NCBI GenBank assembly: GCA_963769885.1
Contig: CAVYNH010000007.1
Location: 224,001-288,000 of the forward strand
Direction of reading: 5' to 3'
DNA from: Methanobacteriota archaeon
GTDB taxonomy: Archaea; Thermoplasmatota; E2; DHVEG-1
Length of the DNA stretch: 64,000 nt
Part shown: piece after piece, positions 47,850 to 55,592 of the stretch
How the letters are laid out: each line of letters opens with the position of its first letter
Position numbering within the stretch: position 1 is the first letter of the stretch
Program-made: the position numbers and the translations under genes
Notes under the pieces: generated by a model
What the model was told of the DNA's origin: nothing
Databases searched by the model: none
Seen by the model: only the letters and a program-made list of their open reading frames with translations

Positions 47850-50393
47850 ATGAACCACTTACCACTCATCCTCATCCTTGTCGCCCTCATGGTCACACCC
47901 CTCCCACTCCAAGCATATCACACCACTCCAACCCCAAACACCACCCACACCGATGACCTCAGCCACTACACCAAACTCGAATGGACCGCCCCTACCAACA
48001 TTCTCCCCGGCACCTACCAAGACTACCTCACCACCCACCCCCTCACCGCCGCCCAGTACCATACCCCGCTCACAAGCCCTAAAACCTGCAATTACGCCAT
48101 CCTCGTCGACCACACCCTCTACCCCGACATCCAACCCGCGCTCACCACCTACCTCAACGACCTCACACGCGAAGGCTACCAACCCTACCTCGACACCATC
48201 ACCGGCGGCACCCCAGCGGACATCAAAGCCTGGGTCACCGCCCGCTACGCCCAAGGAGCCCGCGGCGCCCTCTTCATCGGCGACATCACCGCGGCCTGGG
48301 CCGATGTCAGCAATGATACCTTCCCCTGCGACCTCTACTATATGGACCTCAACGGCACCTGGAACGACACCGACGGCGACGGCGCCTACGAAACCCACAC
48401 CGGCGACATGGCCCCCGAACTCTACATCGCCAGACTCTACGCCACCACCCTCACCTACAACACCGAGGCCGCCCTCATCACCCAATACTTCACCAAAGAC
48501 CACGCCTACCGCACCGGCGACCTCACCGAGCCCTGGCGCGGCCTCGAATACATCGAAGAAGACTGGTACGATATGGACGTCAACCTCGACAACATCTACC
48601 ACGACAACGTCACCCGCTACGACTACGGTTACTTCACCACCGCCGCCGATTACCTCAACCAGATGGACCTCGGCCAATACTACACCCAAGTCTGCGCCCA
48701 CAGCTACTCAGGCGGCCACCACTTCGGCACCCGCCCCACCGAATCCGTCGCCTACGGCCACATCTACGTCTACAGCCCTACTACTCGTCTGGCCGTCCTG
48801 CTGCTCGGCAGCGATGACGGCATCGCCGCCTGGCTCAATGGAAACAGAATCTACTTCAACGACAAGTACGGCGGCTGGCACCAGGACCAGTTCCACGTCA
48901 ATATCACGCTTACCTCCGGCTGGAACAGCCTCCTCCTCAAAGTGAGCCAAGCAGGCGGAGACTTCCTTAGTTCTGCCCGCATCACCGACCCCAATGGTAA
49001 CTCCTACCCAGACATCACCTATCAGCTTAACAACCCTCAAACCCACGGCCCCGATGGGGATTACATCCGTAGCTTCCTACTCAACGGCTTCCACCAAGAC
49101 GAGTCAGGCAACTTCTGGCAGTACCTTACGACCAATTATCTCGGAGTCGATGAAGCCAGCCTCGACCCGCATACCGGTGAGCTCAATGGCGGATGCGTCT
49201 GGACCCCATACAACTCCAGCAGCCCCTACATCAATCTGGGGGCCTACTGCAATGGCGCGGACTACGGGGTCTGCTACGCCTATTGCCGCGTAAACTCAAC
49301 GTCTCAAATCAGCTGTCAGCTGCGCCTTGGCTACGACGACGGAGCCCGGGTCTGGCTCAACGGCCAGGAAGTACTCCTCGATAACCGTTATGGCAGCTAC
49401 ATCCCGGACATGACCACCGTCAATGTAACGCTTCAGAGCGGTGAGAATAGACTTATGATAAAGATCTCGGAATGGATGGGAGATAATGGCTTCAGCGCCC
49501 GGTTCTGCACCCCGACTGGTCAAGCAGTCTCTGGGCTTAGCTACGACCCCGAACCGGTCCCGGTTACACATATTGGGACGTGGTTGTTTAACGGGCCTTA
49601 TGTGAATTCCGATGTGCATACGCGTCTCTCCACCGATTATCTTAATGGGGAGGCTACGGTGGCGCCTAGCGAGGGGGATGCTGCTCCGTTCGGCAGTTGG
49701 CTGAAGGCTATCGGTGAGGGACGCCCATTCAATATCGGTGGTTTTTACGATCACGGGGACTGGGTATTTTCCAGTACCATCCAGGAGCGTGACCCCCCGG
49801 TCTTGTTCTTCAATCTCTTCGCTTGTGGACCCGGGCGGTTCACGGATGAGAACTACCTGGCTGGGGCGTACCTCTTCAATACGAGCGTGGTGCTCAGTGA
49901 TGTCGCCTCGTCGAAGAGTGGCAGTATGTTGAACTTCAAGGATTTCACGAAGCCGCTTGGCCAGGGATTGAGTCTGGGGGAGTCGTATCATATCTGGTGG
50001 GATAAGCAGGCTCCGTATTCGTTGTCGGAGAAGGAATGGTTCTACGGTTTGATCTTGAACGGTGATCCGACGCTATGCATTCCGAGTTCAGTTCAAGTGC
50101 AGGTGATAAAACCGGTGAAGGGTTTGTATCTGCGCGATCATCTATTATGCGCGTTCCCGGTGCCGGTCTGCTTGGGGAAGGTCACGGTCGAGGTTGAGGC
50201 GTTCTGTCCGCAATCGTCGATCAGCCGCGTGGAGTTCTTGGTTGATGGTGTCGTGCAGGCAACGGTAACTTCTGAGCCGTTTGCTTGGACGTGGTTGTCT
50301 CCGGCGTGGTTCCGTCATGAGCTTGGCGTCGTGGCTTATAATGCGCAGAATCGGTCAACGGCGCAGAATGTGACGGTCTGGCGGTTCTTCTAA
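47850..50393 (+). CDS. Secreted C25-like peptidase with inserted tandem beta-sandwich modules and a C-terminal Ig-like domain
   Basis: Signal peptide, LFIGDI, CDLYYMDLNG, PELYIARL, CAHS, FACG, LNGDPTL; two xDDGxxxWLNG...G.N.L..K repeats; VEFLVDG Ig domain. Confidence 0.8.
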   Translation: MNHLPLILILVALMVTPLPLQAYHTTPTPNTTHTDDLSHYTKLEWTAPTNILPGTYQDYLTTHPLTAAQYHTPLTSPKTCNYAILVDHTLYPDIQPALTTYLNDLTREGYQPYLDTITGGTPADIKAWVTARYAQGARGALFIGDITAAWADVSNDTFPCDLYYMDLNGTWNDTDGDGAYETHTGDMAPELYIARLYATTLTYNTEAALITQYFTKDHAYRTGDLTEPWRGLEYIEEDWYDMDVNLDNIYHDNVTRYDYGYFTTAADYLNQMDLGQYYTQVCAHSYSGGHHFGTRPTESVAYGHIYVYSPTTRLAVLLLGSDDGIAAWLNGNRIYFNDKYGGWHQDQFHVNITLTSGWNSLLLKVSQAGGDFLSSARITDPNGNSYPDITYQLNNPQTHGPDGDYIRSFLLNGFHQDESGNFWQYLTTNYLGVDEASLDPHTGELNGGCVWTPYNSSSPYINLGAYCNGADYGVCYAYCRVNSTSQISCQLRLGYDDGARVWLNGQEVLLDNRYGSYIPDMTTVNVTLQSGENRLMIKISEWMGDNGFSARFCTPTGQAVSGLSYDPEPVPVTHIGTWLFNGPYVNSDVHTRLSTDYLNGEATVAPSEGDAAPFGSWLKAIGEGRPFNIGGFYDHGDWVFSSTIQERDPPVLFFNLFACGPGRFTDENYLAGAYLFNTSVVLSDVASSKSGSMLNFKDFTKPLGQGLSLGESYHIWWDKQAPYSLSEKEWFYGLILNGDPTLCIPSSVQVQVIKPVKGLYLRDHLLCAFPVPVCLGKVTVEVEAFCPQSSISRVEFLVDGVVQATVTSEPFAWTWLSPAWFRHELGVVAYNAQNRSTAQNVTVWRFF

Positions 50394-51103: not shown

Positions 51104-51925
51104 TTATCCTTCCTGGACGGGGGATCGCCAGTCGAGGCCAGGGGTGCGGATGCCGAGTTTGGGGACGAGTGGGAAGCGGCGTTTGTGCTGGCTACGTACA
51201 CGCATAACGCGGATACGTTCCACCTGAGCTTTGGTGGCATCGGCTTCTCGTTGGATAAGAGGGGGTGGGAGTTTACAATCGAGGCCGAAGAGAATCTCAT
51301 CGAGGGTTTCGTATTTCATTTTGAGTTCGCTTTCGTCAGTCTGGCCAATCCAAAGGCCGGCGGTAGGCGGTTTGGTAATGATGGGGTTGGGGATGCCCAG
51401 GTACTTTGCGAGTTGGTAGATCTGGGACTTGTAGAGGTCGCCGATGGGCTGGATGTCGACGCCGCCGTCGCCGTATTTGGTGAAGTAGCCGACGAGTATC
51501 TCTGATTTGTTGCTGGTTCCGCAGACGAGGCGGTGGGTCTGGTTGGCGTAGGTGAAGAGGAGGATCATGCGGGCGCGTGCCTTGATGTTGGCGAGGGTCT
51601 TTTTTGGTGGGCGTCTACCGAGAACGGTGGTGTAGGTATCGATGATGGGGGTGATGTCGATGGTGGTGCAAGGAATCTTGTATTTTGTTATGATGAGTTT
51701 TTGGTGGCGTCGGTCGCTTTGGGGGGTGGCTTCGTCCGGCATGAAGAGGCAGTGGACATGCCTGCGGCCGAGGGCTTGGGTGGCGAGTAAGGCCACGACT
51801 GCGCTGTCGACGCCGCCGGACAGTCCGATGATGACGCCGTTTGCGCCGGCTTGGCGGACGTAGGTTTTGATGAAGTCTTTGATGACGATGCTTGCTTCTT
51901 CGGGGTTGATGGTGGGGATGGTCAT
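51104..51925 (-). CDS. nadE: NH3-dependent NAD+ synthetase
   Basis: GLSGGVDS, NIKARARM, GTSNKSE..GYFTKYGDG, PTAGLW.GQTDE, SQHKR. Confidence 0.97.
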   Translation of the reverse strand: MTIPTINPEEASIVIKDFIKTYVRQAGANGVIIGLSGGVDSAVVALLATQALGRRHVHCLFMPDEATPQSDRRHQKLIITKYKIPCTTIDITPIIDTYTTVLGRRPPKKTLANIKARARMILLFTYANQTHRLVCGTSNKSEILVGYFTKYGDGGVDIQPIGDLYKSQIYQLAKYLGIPNPIITKPPTAGLWIGQTDESELKMKYETLDEILFGLDCKLPPPLIQREADATKAQVERIRVMRVRSQHKRRFPLVPKLGIRTPGLDWRSPVQEG

Positions 51926-53256
51926 CGTTGCCAGGTCTCCAGGGATTCTTTGGTGATTTCCATGGCTTGGGTGAGTATTTTATTGTCAACGGGGGAGAAG
52001 GAGGCGCGGGCGATGGCGAAGGGGATGCGGCGGAGGTAGTCGCTCATTCTGAGGTCGCGGCGGAGGGTGGTGTTGATGTGGGTTTCGACGATGGTGTTCA
52101 TGTCTTGGAGGTAGCGTTCGACGGCGGTGTCGGTGGCGGTGATGGTGGGCTGGTGGGTGCGGGCGAGTTTGAGCCATTGGTCGTAGTAGTCGTGTTTGTC
52201 GACGGCGTCGCCGGCGCCGTAGAATTTTTTGCGGAAGAGGGCGAGGCGGTCTTCGCGGCTGATGTTTTCGACTCTGACAACGAGGGCGCAGCGGCTGAGG
52301 AGCAAGGGTGAGAGTCCGATGTCGCTGAGTGCTTGTTTGCCGAAGACCTTGCTGCGTGGGTTGGCGAAGGCGATCATGATGAACTGGCTTTCGATGGTCT
52401 GGTGGAGTTTCGAGGAGTGGACGCTGCATTTGCCGTTGCTGAGGAGTTCGTAGCAGTATTCGATGTCATCTTCGGGGATTTTGTCGAATTCGTCGACGAG
52501 GACGAGCTTGTGGTCGGCGTGGGGGAGGGCGCCGAGTTCGCCGGTGCCGAGGTGGCAGACCAAGCCACTTCGTGTGGTGTTGGCGCCGATGGTCATGACG
52601 TCGGTGAAGTCGGTGCTGATGATTTCTTTGGCCATGGTTTTGCTGCTGCCGGGTTCGCCGATGATGAGGGAGTGAACGGGCTCATCGAAGGTGCTGAAGA
52701 GGCTGGTGGCGACGACTTTTTTCATGGTGTCGTTGCCTTGGATGTCGTGGAAGACGTTCTGCCAGAAGCCGTCGAAGCCGCGGTTTTGTGCGAACTGACG
52801 GAGGTCGTCTTCGGGCAGGGTGATGCCGTGTCGTTCGTGGTCTTGGAGGTGTTTGGCTTCGAGGATTTCTCTGAGTCCTTCGGCTTTGGTGATGACTTGG
52901 GTGAAGGTCGGTGATTTTCTGGTGAGCCGGAGGATGTTGCCTTCGATGCTAAGGGCGGTGTTTCCCCAGCCAACCGCATAGACGTCGAGGGCGTTGAGGA
53001 CGGATTTGATGACGGCTCTGTCGCGTTTTTTGACGGTGATTTCGACGAGGTCGTCGGTGGTGATGGTGATGTCGAGGATGTTTTGGTTCGCGAGGATGTT
53101 GCGGGCGCGCTGGATGAGCATGGTGCCTTTGCCTGGGCCCATGCCTAGCGATTGCACTGAGCTGAGGGCGATCTGTTCGAGGGTGGTAATGCCCATGCTC
53201 TCCAGTTTCTTCCGGTCGGAAGGGATGACTCCGAGCATGGTGAGGGCGTCTTCCAT
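51922..53256 (-). CDS. Atypical MCM-like AAA+ protein with RadA-like HhH N-terminal domain
   Basis: IQGND..K, HSLIIGEPGSSKT, TTRSGL, GALPHAD, VDEFDKI, AFANP, LLSRC; N-terminus aligns with the RadA N-domain. Confidence 0.85.
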   Translation of the reverse strand: MEDALTMLGVIPSDRKKLESMGITTLEQIALSSVQSLGMGPGKGTMLIQRARNILANQNILDITITTDDLVEITVKKRDRAVIKSVLNALDVYAVGWGNTALSIEGNILRLTRKSPTFTQVITKAEGLREILEAKHLQDHERHGITLPEDDLRQFAQNRGFDGFWQNVFHDIQGNDTMKKVVATSLFSTFDEPVHSLIIGEPGSSKTMAKEIISTDFTDVMTIGANTTRSGLVCHLGTGELGALPHADHKLVLVDEFDKIPEDDIEYCYELLSNGKCSVHSSKLHQTIESQFIMIAFANPRSKVFGKQALSDIGLSPLLLSRCALVVRVENISREDRLALFRKKFYGAGDAVDKHDYYDQWLKLARTHQPTITATDTAVERYLQDMNTIVETHINTTLRRDLRMSDYLRRIPFAIARASFSPVDNKILTQAMEITKESLETWQR

Positions 53257-53363
53257 AGGCTGCCTTGTGATGAAACCGGATAGAAACACTCTTCTGACTA
53301 AAAACATTTTTGGTAAAATCCCACTATCTTTTTTGAGGCGCGCACGAAGTAATAGGGGAGTGT

Positions 53364-54419
53364 CTAGCCCTCGGTTTGAGATTGAAGGGCTAGGTCGCGT
53401 TCGATTGTTTGGAGGCAATAGGGATCGGCGTGCGATTGCTCTGTGTGTGCGGCGGAGACGCAGAGGCAGCCGCCTTTGCAGGAGGCGCCAAAACGACAGC
53501 CTTGACAGGTAGCGTTTAGGTCTTTTTTAGTGAACTCTCGGTTATAGGTGAAGCAGGCGGGGTCGTTCCAGATCGAAGTCAGCGATTGGGAAAGAAGGGA
53601 GCCTTCTATGAACGATGGTGGGAGGGAGAGGCATCCTTTCACGGCACCGTCGCTTTGGATGCCGAGGTTGCTGATGCCGGCCTGGCAGCCGATCCAGCGA
53701 GGGAGGATGTTGATGTTGGGAAGTATCTTTGAATTGTAGCCGAAGCAGTGGGCGCCGACGATGGGGAGTTCTTTCATGCTGTATTGGTTGCGCGTGCCGG
53801 CGATGAAGAGTGCGACGGCGTAGAATTCATCTTTGGAGAGGGTGAGGTTTGGTGGGCATCGGCCGATGGCTGTGGCAACCTGGAGTTGCCATGCGACGCC
53901 GGTGTTAAGGAGGTGCTGTCGGAGGAGAGGGAGTTCGGGGAGGTTTTGTTTGTTGACGGTGGTGACAACGCTGACGCGGATTCCCGCATCTGTGAGGAGG
54001 GGCATGACTTCGAAGCATTTTGCAAATGAGCCGGGCCTTTGTCTGATGGCGTCGTGGGTCGCGGGTGTTCCTCCGTCGATGCTGAGGGCGATCGTGCGGA
54101 AATCGAGTGTGCGGAGTTTTGTTATAATCTCTGGGGTGATAATCCAGCCGTTGGTGACCATGCTTGGCATAATCCCGTGGTCTTTGATGTCGGAGGCGAC
54201 AGCGTACCAGTCGGGGTAGAGGAGGGGTTCACCGCCGAGTAGGGAGATTTTCTTGGTGCCGAGATCTGCGAGTTCTTTGGTTGTGCGGTTCCAGATGGCG
54301 GTCGGGAGTTCCTTGGTCCGTGGTCGGCCGGCTGCAGAGCCGCAGTGGATGCAGTTCATGTTGCAGCGTAGGCTGAGTTCATACGCAACGGCAAAGGGCG
54401 TGTAATGTTTCCATTTCAT
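53364..54419 (-). CDS. Radical SAM/SPASM-domain protein
   Basis: CNMNCIHC, GGEP, SIDG; SPASM GCQAG...DGAVKGC...CQGC..C.GGC...DPYC. Confidence 0.93.
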   Translation of the reverse strand: MKWKHYTPFAVAYELSLRCNMNCIHCGSAAGRPRTKELPTAIWNRTTKELADLGTKKISLLGGEPLLYPDWYAVASDIKDHGIMPSMVTNGWIITPEIITKLRTLDFRTIALSIDGGTPATHDAIRQRPGSFAKCFEVMPLLTDAGIRVSVVTTVNKQNLPELPLLRQHLLNTGVAWQLQVATAIGRCPPNLTLSKDEFYAVALFIAGTRNQYSMKELPIVGAHCFGYNSKILPNINILPRWIGCQAGISNLGIQSDGAVKGCLSLPPSFIEGSLLSQSLTSIWNDPACFTYNREFTKKDLNATCQGCRFGASCKGGCLCVSAAHTEQSHADPYCLQTIERDLALQSQTEG

Positions 54420-54457
54420 GGTGTGGTTCACCTTTTGTTTGAATTTGTTTGTCGGAT

Positions 54458-54485
54458 GGCCGGTGTCCCTTGAGGGGCACCGGTC
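54458..54485. promoter_or_regulatory. Intergenic GC-rich hairpin between the small ORF and the rSAM gene
   Basis: GGCCGGTGTCCC-ttga-GGGGCACCGGTC inverted repeat. Confidence 0.6.
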
Positions 54486-54495
54486 ACGGTTCTGT

Positions 54496-54780
54496 TTAGA
54501 ATCGGCCGAACATCTGGTAGATGGCTTGGCCGATGTTGTCGAAGTCCTGGGTGCTGACACTGTGGTAGCGTCCTGGGGTGGCGAGGATGAGTGATGAGAC
54601 GGCGCCAAGGACGGTGACGGCAAGGATGAGCAGACTGTTGATGAGCCGTCTATTGCGTCGAATGGTGCGGTTAACTGCATCTTTCGTCATCCCTAATTTT
54701 TCTCCTAGTGTGTACAGCGTTGGTGATGTCAATCCGGTCTGGATTGTGCCTGCCTTTGTCTCTTCATATGGGTTTTCCAT
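54496..54780 (-). CDS. Small single-TM protein (94 aa), candidate rSAM substrate or partner
   Basis: AGGAGG RBS; soluble N-region, basic patch, TM helix, short C-tail. Confidence 0.75.
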   Translation of the reverse strand: MENPYEETKAGTIQTGLTSPTLYTLGEKLGMTKDAVNRTIRRNRRLINSLLILAVTVLGAVSSLILATPGRYHSVSTQDFDNIGQAIYQMFGRF

Positions 54781-54890
54781 TGTTTCCTCCTTTGTCCACA
54801 AATGCATTTTGTTGTGGAGCGGGGAAAAGAGAAATTATTGTTGTAGGTGTTTTTTTGGAGGATTTAGAAAATGGTTGGTTTTGATTGCTT

Positions 54891-54953
54891 TCAGGAATGA
54901 AGGAGATCAAGAGTCGCCTGTGTGACGTCTGTGTTTATAGGGGTGACGCTCAT
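54891..54953 (-). CDS. Possible 20-aa peptide MSVTPINTDVTQATLDLLHS
   Basis: TTTAAATA box at about 54995-55002, GAGGT RBS, first ORF of the putative transcript. Confidence 0.35.
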   Translation of the reverse strand: MSVTPINTDVTQATLDLLHS

Positions 54954-55058
54954 TTTAACCTCGTGGGAAATACGTGGGAATAAACGAGGGTTGGTATTTA
55001 AAACTTGTGTCAAAACAACAGAAAAACCCTTATTGGAAGGACCATGAGCAACTTCGTG

Positions 55059-55592
55059 TTAAGCGATCCCGAGCCGGATTTTCTTCATTTCCCGTTCAAG
55101 GAACCGGTAGACGGTGGGATGTTGACTGCCGGACAAGAGCATATCCAGCGCGCGTTTCGCGACATCCATGCCTTCGAAATCCGCGATCAAGCCGACAGTA
55201 TGGCCGTAGATGACGACGCTGGCGCCGGTGATCGATTCGATGACGCGCTTCGTCTTCCCATCCCGACCGATGACACGCGCCTTGACCCGTTCGAGATGCG
55301 ACTCGGTCTTTCCCGCATAGTCATAGATATCGAAGATGTACAACTCCACATCATCTTTGAAAAGCCGGAACGCAGCCTCAGGCGAGAACCCGCGGCCGAT
55401 CGCGCGGACGATATCCTCGACCTTCAGCCCAATCAGCGGGTCCTGCGCTTTCGTGTCATCGATGGTGACCTCGCCTTCCTCAGAGTCGATCTCAAGGTGA
55501 ACATGGGCCCTCTCCTCAATCGACTGCTTCGTCTCGCCATTGTGGCCGATGAGGACCCCGACACGTTCCTTAGGGATGCGTACGTACCTCAT
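55059..55592 (-). CDS. KH-domain pre-rRNA processing protein (Dim2/Pno1-like)
   Basis: RVGVLIG..G, AIGRGFSPE, RVIGRDGKT; conserved aIF1A-RIO1-KH synteny. Confidence 0.95.
   Translation of the reverse strand: MRYVRIPKERVGVLIGHNGETKQSIEERAHVHLEIDSEEGEVTIDDTKAQDPLIGLKVEDIVRAIGRGFSPEAAFRLFKDDVELYIFDIYDYAGKTESHLERVKARVIGRDGKTKRVIESITGASVVIYGHTVGLIADFEGMDVAKRALDMLLSGSQHPTVYRFLEREMKKIRLGIA

Follow-up and report, generated by a model that had tools for sequence, protein, structure and literature searches.

The locus described here lies within a 64,000-nucleotide stretch of archaeal DNA, the whole of which is referred to as the window, and consists of two genes that form a mobile unit: one encodes a radical-SAM enzyme of the splicease clade, the other a small membrane-anchored protein, almost certainly the substrate of that enzyme. 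The elements listed in an earlier note on this DNA, namely a TATA-like box, 20- and 94-codon open reading frames (ORFs) with ribosome-binding sites, a hairpin, and a radical SAM (rSAM)/SPASM gene, were all present on the minus strand, as follows.

53364–54419, minus strand: radical SAM/SPASM maturase gene; 351 aa including the start, ATG at 54419, stop codon at 53364–53366
54457–54486, minus strand: G+C-rich hairpin in the space that separates the precursor gene from the enzyme gene; stem of 13 pairs, including 9 G-C
54496–54780, minus strand: putative precursor gene; 94 aa, stop codon at 54496–54498, GGAGG at 54786–54790
54541–54576, minus strand: core motif of the precursor, residues 69–80, with R71-Y72-H73 and D79-F80; predicted modification site
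54580–54645, minus strand: transmembrane (TM) or signal-anchor segment, residues 46–67; hydrophobic, preceded by an Arg-rich stretch
54661–54735, minus strand: leader helix, residues 16–40; conserved [LI]-x-x-[IL]-G-x-x-L-G-[LI]-x-x-x-[ED]-[IV]
54891–54953, minus strand: 20-codon ORF with GAGGT just upstream; probably not a gene of the system
54995–55003, minus strand: TATA-like box TTTTAAATA; possible promoter, some 215 nt ahead of the precursor's start

The pair is flanked by genes for a KH-domain protein and an MCM-type ATPase (Pfam search), and the wider neighbourhood comprises KH, Rio, MCM-like and NadE genes. The KH and MCM-like genes are 58 nt apart in genome G018, while in the congener G001 an unrelated gene occupies the slot that holds the pair in the window. 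Because relatives keep the Rio-KH-MCM-like synteny without the pair, the pair is an inserted cassette. It was not found in G001 (same genus, 91% complete; best match 3.2e-13), and no convincing direct repeats flank it as marks of insertion. Enzyme and precursor occur together across many archaea and some bacteria, and a homologous pair (L075) is present in a cultured bacterium, Geomobilimonas luticola JCM 17780, in which the small protein has a Kunitz domain.

Several nearby elements were considered as further components and set aside. An AbrB/ACT-like gene lies upstream of the pair in four related loci (L002, L003, L004 and L013), but the homologue of this gene is here on another contig, which indicates local synteny and not a component of the window's module. 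The 20-aa ORF was rejected as a second precursor, as it has no Tyr and no counterpart in L002, L013 or the contig of the closest relative. Only about 75 nt separate the AbrB-like gene from the precursor in the first two, and a 92-aa gene takes its place in the third; as a chance background, 114 ORFs of at least 20 aa were counted in an 8 kb region. A secreted 847-aa protein (47850–50393) gave no Peptidase_C25 match in Pfam, and the idea that it is a gingipain, which would have supported a protease-inhibitor role, was dropped.

The hairpin in its 96-nt context folds at −25.5 kcal/mol (z = −2.9; 1 of 200 shuffles folded as well) and is not followed by a U-tract in the window. The arrangement noticed earlier, in which the precursor gene is followed by a hairpin, is seen again in several homologous loci: L002, L013 and L003 have one in the corresponding place (z −4.2 to −4.7), L021 has one locally, and none was found there in L005, L006 or L015. 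Rfam gave no match to the 5' region or the hairpin (53200–55300). Of the elements listed, the enzyme gene, the conserved 94-aa ORF and the recurrent hairpin position exceed what chance would give; the 20-aa ORF and the TATA-like box may be chance occurrences.

The enzyme and its relatives

The enzyme belongs to the radical SAM/SPASM superfamily, with both the cluster motif and the SPASM cysteine set present. Its CX3CX2C motif (residues 19, 23 and 26; nt 54342–54365) is invariant at C19, C23 and C26 in alignment A1, as are the seven SPASM cysteines C245, C263, C305, C308, C314, C318 and C335 (nt 53415–53687). Pfam matches were to PF04055 (2.4e-23, 83.6 bits) and PF13186 (29.9 bits, above the cut-off of 21.5). 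The start was placed at the ATG at 54419 because homologues are 342–353 aa long, and a 438-aa version of the ORF was discarded as a spurious 5' extension.

Among the curated NCBIfam models, the best match was to TIGR04103 (195.5 bits, cut-off 725), followed by TIGR03913 (178.9 bits, cut-off 591.75) and TIGR04133 (rSAM_w_lipo; 142.3 bits, cut-off 425). The resemblance to spliceases proposed in the earlier note is borne out, in that the first two are the nearest curated families, though the scores are only about one quarter to one third of the cut-offs, which excludes equivalog status for both. The AhbC/AhbD/NirJ models (TIGR04545/04546/04051) gave 130.6, 94.1 and 102.9 bits against cut-offs of 500–650, with AhbD at 130.6, and MftC and PqqE were among the lower matches (115.2 and 78.9 bits). 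The same order, with TIGR04103 and TIGR03913 ahead of AhbD, was seen in 10 relatives. None of 20 relatives tested reached a curated splicease cut-off, the highest being P0201, a TIGR03913-like protein at 473 bits.

In phylogenetic trees, the enzymes accompanied by a precursor with a Y-x6-D-F-type core formed one clade (SH-like 98, FastTree; SH-aLRT 93, IQ-TREE), nested within a splicease-like clade with a support of 96 versus outgroups. This larger clade also held P0201, TIGR04103-like proteins, and enzymes encoded beside short X-Y-G peptides; such short classic peptides adjoin related enzymes in Zixibacteria/Ignavibacteria and in Myxococcota. By HMM rank and tree, the enzyme falls in the wider splicease clade, closer to it than to other rSAM/SPASM families. 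The signature residues of the clade are E14, A30-G31, W71, W177, Q178, Q180, G227 and W242. The enzyme motifs quoted earlier are all present, and four of them (HCGSxAG, WQxQ, GY and WxGCxAG) are shared throughout the splicease-like clade but missing from SPASM enzymes of the outgroup. The family-specific residues Y200, H224 and S230 differ from those of other splicease-like enzymes.

The enzyme stood apart from the other SPASM paralogues of its own genome, and an AhbC/D/NirJ or lipid-modifying identity was ruled out by HMM ranks and trees. A grouping with AhbC/D/NirJ had been named in advance as an outcome that would count against a peptide-modifying role; the enzyme ranks nearer to the splicease families, which supports the proposal of a RiPP-like protein-modifying unit. 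No heme or d1 gene context was seen around it, the neighbours being the KH, Rio, MCM-like and NadE genes. Among solved structures there was no splicease, and the nearest chains were generic SPASM proteins (SkfB, PqqE, viperin) with E values of about 1e-16 or weaker.

The precursor and its predicted docking

A homologue of the small ORF lies beside the enzyme gene in 48 of 55 related loci (47 detected by HMM and one by motif), which span Thermoplasmatota, Asgard archaea, DPANN, Elusimicrobiota and Thermodesulfobacteriota. Most share the strand of the enzyme gene and many are within 100 nt of it. Conserved in this way across phyla, the 94-aa ORF is a true gene. Co-occurrence had been suggested as a check on both small ORFs: the 94-aa ORF keeps its place beside the enzyme gene in homologous loci, where no counterpart of the 20-aa ORF occurs. 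In the closest relative (P0278) the precursor is 82% and the enzyme 72% identical, and the ten-residue core is the same. The precursor gene is single-copy in the window's genome. Searches with ten diverse members gave no Pfam or NCBIfam family match, and no Nif11 or NHLP leader was matched in Pfam.

These small proteins are built alike: a helix at the N terminus, in most cases a TM or signal segment, and a core at the C terminus. Bacterial homologues are lipoproteins or secreted Kunitz-domain proteins that end in the same core, with lipobox or signal-peptidase sites following the same leader helix. Homologues of 57–67 aa in L007, L008, L016 and L017 have no TM segment, and multi-core or multi-copy precursors, some with two or three tandem cores, occur in L008, L009, L016, L019 and L021. 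The locus follows the general RiPP-type plan, with a leader-and-core precursor encoded beside a maturase. The membrane tethering of the precursor that had been suggested agrees with a conserved TM segment, which has a 19-residue Kyte-Doolittle maximum of 2.44, flanks with net charges of +5 (N side) and 0 (C side) that predict an N-in/C-out orientation, and is kept in 11 of 11 members of the window's subclade.

The core provides the candidate site. Tyr72 (codon at 54565–54567) is the only invariant column of alignment A2, while D79 and F80 are conserved at 90% or more. In 76 non-redundant cores the residue after Tyr is Gly in 37, Ser in 14, Ala in 12, Thr in 3, and others in about 10 (His, Asn, Tyr and Phe being found besides the small residues), such that a small residue follows in 66 of the 76 and Gly is the commonest. 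The preceding residue is usually Arg, Lys, His or aromatic. As was noted before, neither the 94-aa nor the 20-aa ORF contains Tyr-Gly; the window's R-Y-H aligns with the X-Y-G of about half of the homologues (the L007 and L008 types are examples with Tyr-Gly), and P0278 also has R-Y-H. The absence of Tyr-Gly is a lineage-specific substitution, conserved in the closest relative, and the new substrate chemistry proposed from it is possible but not required. Nor did attention to the tyrosines of the C-terminal tail prove well placed, as the better candidate is the invariant Tyr72 within R-Y-H.

Structure modelling predicted that the leader helix and core dock onto the enzyme. The enzyme-precursor model had an ipSAE of 0.76 (best control, 0.00), a value that expresses the model's own confidence. 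In calibration, 58 of 80 solved complexes attained this value, as did 2 of 110 mismatched pairs, although this job, unlike the calibration, used custom alignments and ligands. Across three model runs, at least 73% of contacts were common and the partner pLDDT was at least 60. The modelled leader helix contacts enzyme residues 160–164, 197–215 and 232–234, with the lowest expected errors, and core residues 67–80 span the barrel mouth, where they contact residues 10–14, 57–61, 86–88, 108–111, 148–154, 174–180, 221–225 and 263–265, including the clade-signature residues E14, Q178 and Q180. D79-F80 is modelled as pairing with enzyme strands, and the TM segment makes no enzyme contacts.

Candidate chemistry and comparison with known systems

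Splicease types were reportedly defined by Scott et al. in 2022 (Chem). The splicease reaction is a net loss of a tyramine equivalent (C8H9NO, about 135.06–135.07 Da) that yields an alpha-keto-beta-amino amide. Like the type I systems PlpXY/PcpXY (TIGR03913) and the nif11-class maturase 3 (TIGR04103), the window enzyme has the signature residues and full SPASM cysteine set, and falls in the same clade; it differs in being shorter (351 aa, where the profiles have 477 and 412 positions, respectively), in having no C-terminal extension, and in the absence of a PlpY-like gene and of a Nif11 or NHLP leader. TIGR04133 enzymes are paired with a small lipoprotein in a system that is uncharacterised. 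Bacterial members of the present family resemble them in being paired with small lipoproteins, with a lipobox after the leader helix, but the window enzyme scores 142.3 bits against a cut-off of 425, and no partner-protein model matched any precursor searched. The rSAM/SPASM enzymes MftC (mycofactocin) and PqqE modify a Tyr within a small ribosomal peptide; they depend on an RRE protein of the PqqD type, and their substrates end in Val-Tyr or contain a Glu...Tyr pair; the window core resembles neither, and both families rank lower by HMM.

The closest parallel is with the binary (type II) spliceases RhaX/RhaA, RcsX/RcsA and RasX/RasA of Rheinheimera (PMC11414181, PMC11626197), which likewise consist of an rSAM/SPASM enzyme and a precursor without a Y protein. 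In published AlphaFold models of these, the leader helix stands in for the Y protein, with the X-Y-G site placed in the active site (PMC11414181); a leader alpha-helix bound to the enzyme and a core Tyr in the active site are likewise predicted for the window pair. No PqqD/RRE or Y-protein (PlpY-like) gene adjoins the pair in the window, as the earlier note had also remarked of the former, and the missing RRE can be explained because binary spliceases use the leader helix instead (PMC11414181). Unlike the binary spliceases, the window pair is archaeal, has a TM or signal anchor between precursor leader and core, carries a Y-x6-D-F core with a variable post-Tyr residue (here His) in place of a strict X-Y-G, and has no transporter or protease gene adjacent to it.

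The reading we favour, with a probability of roughly one half, is that of a binary, Y-protein-free maturase of the splicease clade that acts at Tyr72 of an exported, membrane-anchored precursor, with tyramine excision suggested by homology. The 94-aa precursor would be synthesised in the cytoplasm, its helix 16–40 would dock on enzyme helix 197–215, and core residues 67–80 would be laid as a strand over the open face of the SAM barrel. Reductive cleavage of SAM by the enzyme would lead to attack at Tyr72; a tyramine equivalent would be excised, and the Arg71 carbonyl joined to the former Tyr carbonyl in an alpha-keto-beta-amino (ketoamide) linkage. Positively charged on its N side, the hydrophobic segment would then enter the membrane N-in/C-out and leave the modified tail of 27 residues exposed on the cell exterior. 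If the tail is exported, modification would have to come before membrane insertion, an order that is assumed here. What we infer in this scheme is the chemistry, the sequence in which modification and export take place, and a protease-inhibitor role, if any; the docking mode is predicted, and the analysis itself establishes the TM segment, the invariance of Tyr72, the place of the enzyme in the clade, and the presence, conservation and mobility of the gene pair. By analogy, tyramine excision at Tyr72 is plausible, but the target described for characterised spliceases is X-Y-G (PMC11414181, PMC9811515), whereas the window site is R-Y-H and about half of the family lacks Gly after Tyr, and the near-invariant Asp-Phe is not a described feature of spliceotides.

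These same points would fit a different radical chemistry at or near Tyr72, with the same pair and docking, in which Y-x6-D-F marks a new modification and no splice site; the possibilities include cross-linking of Tyr, through C-C or C-O, with a residue further downstream, beta-hydroxylation, dehydrogenation, and core epimerisation. Gly after Tyr is dispensable in the family (Tyr-His being kept in the closest relative), D79 and F80 hardly vary and keep a constant distance from Tyr, Y200, H224 and S230 are unlike those of other splicease-like enzymes, the scores are far under the splicease cut-offs, and other SPASM enzymes (MftC, PqqE) treat Tyr otherwise. We nevertheless regard it as a somewhat doubtful alternative: the nearest relatives by HMM rank and tree are splicease-like enzymes beside X-Y-G peptides, Gly is the modal residue after Tyr with a small residue in 66 of 76 cores, and Asp-Phe may be a mere recognition anchor, paired as it is with enzyme strands in the model.

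It is unlikely that the small protein is a membrane anchor or activator, and no substrate, for an enzyme that modifies a lipid or other small molecule at the membrane. The many homologues without a TM segment (such as the 57–67-aa proteins of L007, L008, L016 and L017), the tandem cores or several gene copies per enzyme in some loci, the bacterial lipoproteins and secreted Kunitz-domain proteins with the same terminal core, the prediction that the sole invariant residue, a Tyr, lies in the barrel mouth, and the separation of the enzyme from its genome's other SPASM paralogues all speak against it, even though members of the window's subclade all keep the TM segment, rSAM enzymes are heavily used in archaeal lipid tailoring (PMC11186832, PMC11214058), and spliceotide precursors have leader helices that serve as activators (PMC11414181). 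Decay is still harder to credit. The 94-aa ORF or the pair could be a remnant, with Tyr-His marking loss of function and a merely historical association, as might be read from the His in place of the canonical Gly and the absence of the pair from G001; both genes are intact, however, with strong ribosome-binding sites, all cluster cysteines and clade-signature residues are retained, and the nearest relative has the same ten-residue core at 82% precursor and 72% enzyme identity.

Possible surface display and wider implications

On a more far-reaching and somewhat doubtful reading, the Y-x6-D-F family would be a distinct, previously undescribed class of surface-displayed ribosomal products with a Gly-independent Tyr modification, possibly a protease-inhibitor warhead at the cell surface. 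Such a class would be common to Asgard, Thermoplasmatota and DPANN archaea and several bacterial phyla, and the enzyme reaction would be either tyramine excision of relaxed specificity or a new reaction. As the recognition helix lies upstream of a Sec-type anchor, lipobox or signal peptide, export would also remove or sequester the leader. The Arg, Lys, His or aromatic residue before Tyr, together with the Kunitz domain of some bacterial precursors, means that the product could be a protease-inhibitor warhead.

To our knowledge, spliceases are the sole enzymes that excise backbone atoms from a finished protein, leaving a beta-amino ketoamide. This group serves as a protease-inhibitor warhead and as a handle for protein labelling. 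Characterised spliceases are, as far as the literature was surveyed, bacterial and act at X-Tyr-Gly sites. If the present family splices, the reaction would extend to archaea, including Asgard archaea, and to exported or membrane-anchored proteins; Gly would be dispensable, which would give a wider choice of splice tags, and the design would be compact, with the leader ahead of the export signal. Within the literature surveyed, it would also provide the first radical-SAM-modified peptide with known structure or function from these archaea. If the family does not splice, the invariant Tyr...Asp-Phe core would mark a new radical modification; in either case the question can be tested directly with two genes.

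Gene pair, surroundings and mobility

A radical SAM/SPASM enzyme (351 aa) and a membrane-anchored protein of 94 aa, encoded side by side, are likely to be maturase and substrate (probability about 0.85), because of the gene pairing, an invariant tyrosine in the small protein, and the clade placement of the enzyme. The locus comprised the following features:

55003-54995, minus strand, TATA-like sequence TTTTAAATA, read from sequence
54953-54891, minus strand, 20-codon ORF, read from sequence
54780-54496, minus strand, 94-codon ORF (precursor), with GGAGG directly ahead
54486-54457, minus strand, G+C-rich hairpin between the precursor and enzyme genes
54419 (ATG) to 53364 (stop), minus strand, radical SAM/SPASM gene, its start matching homologues

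The 438-aa frame given by an ORF finder was rejected as a 5' extension that runs into the small gene, since homologues start at the 54419 position and have lengths of 342-353 aa. Rfam held no family matching the locus region, and the 20-codon ORF, which the earlier note had counted as part of the locus, had no counterpart in the other loci compared. The same note's hairpin after the precursor gene was present in the window (96-nt stretch, -25.5 kcal/mol, z = -2.9, 1 of 200 shuffles equally stable), in the precursor-enzyme spacers of homologous loci L002, L013 and L003 (strong, z -4.2 to -4.7), and locally in L021, but folding of the L005, L006 and L015 spacers gave none. U-tracts follow the hairpins of L002 and L013 but not that of the window. 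As the hairpin sequences differ, it is the position that recurs among loci and not the sequence, which would fit partial termination, or transcript stabilisation favouring the precursor.

Housekeeping genes surround the pair: upstream lie those for eIF1A, Rio kinase and a KH-domain protein, downstream those for an MCM-type ATPase and NadE. The ATPase (51922-53256, minus strand, 444 aa, P-loop type; PF00493, 1.9e-14) is highly conserved, with 68-87% identity in relatives, and its true start is probably ATG 53256 rather than TTG 53418, which overlaps the radical SAM gene. Genome G018 has the Rio, KH and MCM-like genes in an unbroken row, only 58 nt separating KH from MCM-like, and its own precursor-enzyme pair sits elsewhere, beside an AbrB-like gene. 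In G001, a 91% complete genome of the same genus, an enzyme orthologue was not found (best match 3.2e-13), and the exact place between the KH and MCM-like genes that the pair occupies in the window is taken by an unrelated ORF of 283 aa on the opposite strand (L098:430-1281, minus), which begins with a signal-like segment and is matched by no Pfam family. The contig of the closest relative carries yet other genes around the pair. Close homologues are labelled Thermoplasmatota or Thermoplasmatales archaeon. Of the 24 other genomes searched from the window's family, only 8 gave strong matches (E ~1e-90 or lower), some of them with two or three copies. Precursor and enzyme genes form a cassette, and the stretch between the KH and MCM-like genes seems open to cargo of different kinds.

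In four loci whose surroundings otherwise differ, the gene immediately upstream of the precursor encodes a 139-aa SpoVT/AbrB-plus-ACT-like protein (L002:630-1052, L003:659-1078, L004:659-1078, L013:5124-5543); its homologue in the window's genome is on another contig (G000:C6:229432-229833, 55% identity).

The precursor family

Relatives of the window's genome carry a small ORF of the same build directly upstream of the enzyme gene, and a profile built from these was run for three iterations over 93 loci. Co-occurrence of the 94-aa ORF with enzyme homologues, a point raised in the earlier note, was borne out: a precursor homologue adjoins the enzyme in 47 of 55 enzyme-clade loci, plus one more by motif, mostly on the same strand and in many cases within 100 nt. 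Hosts include Thermoplasmatota, several Asgard lineages, Undinarchaeota, Nanohaloarchaeota, Elusimicrobiota and Thermodesulfobacteriota. No Pfam or NCBIfam model matched any precursor checked.

The family has an N-terminal block, [LI]-x-x-[IL]-G-x-x-L-G-[LI]-x-x-x-[ED]-[IV], and a core in which Tyr72 is the sole invariant column of a 28-row alignment, with Asp79 and Phe80 conserved at 90% or more. That neither small ORF contains Tyr-Gly, as the earlier note had remarked, agrees with the R-Y-H at the window's conserved site; among 76 non-redundant cores, Tyr is followed by Gly in 37, Ser in 14, Ala in 12, Thr in 3 and other residues in about 10. The closest relative (enzyme 72%, precursor 82% identity) retains an identical ten-residue core, and Tyr-His is therefore a state that has been kept up and no sign of decay. 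In some homologues the core occurs two or three times in tandem, or there are several precursor genes together with two or three enzyme genes in tandem.

In the window's protein, residues 50-68 reach a Kyte-Doolittle maximum of 2.44, and flanking net charges of +5 (N) and 0 (C) predict an N-in/C-out orientation. The hydrophobic segment is present in 11 of 11 members of the window's subclade, and a second Thermoplasmatota subclade is without one. Bacterial homologues retain the leader helix and each terminates in the same core; a lipobox-type signal follows the helix in Elusimicrobiota, and a signal peptide and Kunitz/BPTI domain (PF00014, ~1e-14) in Thermodesulfobacteriota. Since the enzyme lacks a signal sequence and carries Fe-S clusters, modification would take place in the cytoplasm, prior to membrane insertion.

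Many Thermoplasmatota loci (L008 in G012, L007 in G017, L016, L017, L019, L066) combine two or three paralogous enzyme genes, arranged in tandem, with an equally small set of two or three precursor genes lacking a TM segment, and the L009 and L019 precursors have three tandem cores each. Two stretches of protein P0121 (731 aa) match the enzyme, and the protein may be a two-enzyme fusion. A second precursor subtype (L010, L044, L047, L050, L053, L056, L041, L045; DPANN, Asgard, some Thermoplasmatota) contains a pair of hydrophobic segments as well as G-Y-P-[YF] in its interior, and ends in Y-[GDN]-V-[FY]-S-[KR] in place of Y-x6-D-F; up to five tandem copies occur (L050). Several loci with TM-less or repeat precursors are flanked by a large ORF starting with a methyltransferase-like L-N-[IL]-G-C-G (L007:1-1107, minus; L008:1-428, minus; L058:1463-2881; L063:2707-4002), absent from the window; Pfam gave a weak Methyltransf_11 match for L007 and none for L058, and it may be a further tailoring enzyme.

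Enzyme relationships and predicted complex

The enzyme matches PF04055 and PF13186, and alignment showed a CX3CX2C motif and seven invariant SPASM cysteines. Its splicease-like character, proposed from motifs in the earlier note, was upheld by NCBIfam, where the top matches were TIGR04103 (nif11-class maturase 3; 195.5 bits, cut-off 725) and TIGR03913 (PlpX family; 178.9, cut-off 591.75), followed by TIGR04133 (142.3, cut-off 425) and AhbD (130.6, cut-off 500). Given this ranking and the sub-cut-off scores, the enzyme is closest to spliceases, yet an equivalog of none of these families. The ranking was identical for ten relatives, archaeal and bacterial. A sequence search of PDB chains gave generic matches only, and no solved splicease structure.

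Trees from FastTree (110 rows) and IQ-TREE (LG+C20, short search, 56 rows) agreed. Enzymes paired with the precursor type described above formed one clade (SH-like 98; SH-aLRT 93), a descriptive result, as the group was set by its precursor before the tree was viewed. Near it are Myxococcota enzymes whose neighbour genes encode repeats with a P-G-T-[RK]-Y-G site; more distant are proteins scoring 247-279 bits on both splicease models, and Zixibacteria/Ignavibacteria enzymes whose loci encode short peptides with L/C/M-Y-G close to the C-terminus, along with a second rSAM, a B12-rSAM and an ABC transporter. A protein resembling TIGR03913 (473 bits) was basal in the splicease-like clade, which was split from this genome's other SPASM paralogues with support of 96. 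Residues E14, A30-G31, W71, W177, Q178/Q180, G227 and W242 are common to the whole clade and missing from outgroups, and Y200, H224 and S230 are specific to the enzymes with this precursor type.

The Zixibacteria/Ignavibacteria peptides (L065, L072, L077, L084, L069) are 36-58 aa long, encoded ~1.4 kb upstream of the splicease-like gene, with the Y-G motif in a C-terminal Cys-rich stretch; with their 450-aa second rSAM, B12-binding rSAM and ABC transporter, the loci resemble classic spliceotide clusters equipped for additional tailoring. The Myxococcota precursors (L057:6082-6393, L058:6253-6444) lie downstream of two tandem splicease-like genes and consist of repeated units, each a short helix-like segment plus P-G-T-[RK]-Y-G-L, with a core similar to the Thorarchaeota form of the precursor family described above.

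The enzyme and precursor were modelled together, with alignments for both chains, SAM and three clusters. The ipSAE was 0.76 against 0.00 for the best control. Of 80 solved complexes 58 attained this mark, as did 2 of 110 mismatched pairs; these counts are only roughly applicable here, as the calibration was ligand-free and used other alignments. Three runs shared at least 73% of contacts, with partner pLDDT of at least 60. In the model, precursor residues 16-40 contact enzyme residues 160-164, 197-215 and 232-234, residues 67-80 contact 10-14, 57-61, 86-88, 108-111, 148-154, 174-180, 221-225 and 263-265, and the hydrophobic segment is contact-free. In binary spliceases, the leader helix fills the place that the Y protein takes in ternary systems, and SAM is close to the splice site (PMC11414181); the predicted complex is alike in leader-helix docking and core placement and, as a prediction, supports binding of the precursor by the enzyme.

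Possible chemistry and role

Spliceases excise a tyramine equivalent at X-Y-G, so that the carbonyl of X becomes linked to that of the former Tyr (PMC9811515, PMC11414181). By homology, tyramine excision has about an even chance of being the chemistry here, in which case R71-Y72-H73 would yield an arginine-derived ketoamide. Against excision speak the missing Gly after Tyr in half of the family, this locus included, the Asp-Phe anchor, which is not among known spliceotide features, and splicease-family scores far under cut-offs. Another Tyr-centred reaction is a less probable, rather doubtful, alternative.

By a review's account, the spliceotide-defining survey turned up such enzymes across 189 bacterial genera, and 27 pairs were confirmed (PMC10849128); one later paper touches briefly on archaeal genomes (PMC11626197). 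The literature consulted described neither this precursor family, with its leader followed by a signal anchor, nor sites without Gly, nor the spread among archaea; the clade may have been listed in the primary survey.

A protease-inhibitor role of the product is a speculation, based on the activity reported for spliceotides (PMC11626197), on the residue preceding Tyr, which is basic or aromatic, and on the Kunitz fusions. The latter run from leader helix through signal peptide and Kunitz/BPTI domain (PF00014, ~1e-14) to a K-Y-G-G-V...D-F core (L075:3565-3999, Geomobilimonas luticola JCM 17780; L024:3571-3996; L023:3595-3996). As G. luticola JCM 17780 is a cultured strain, native study of the Kunitz-type system is possible.
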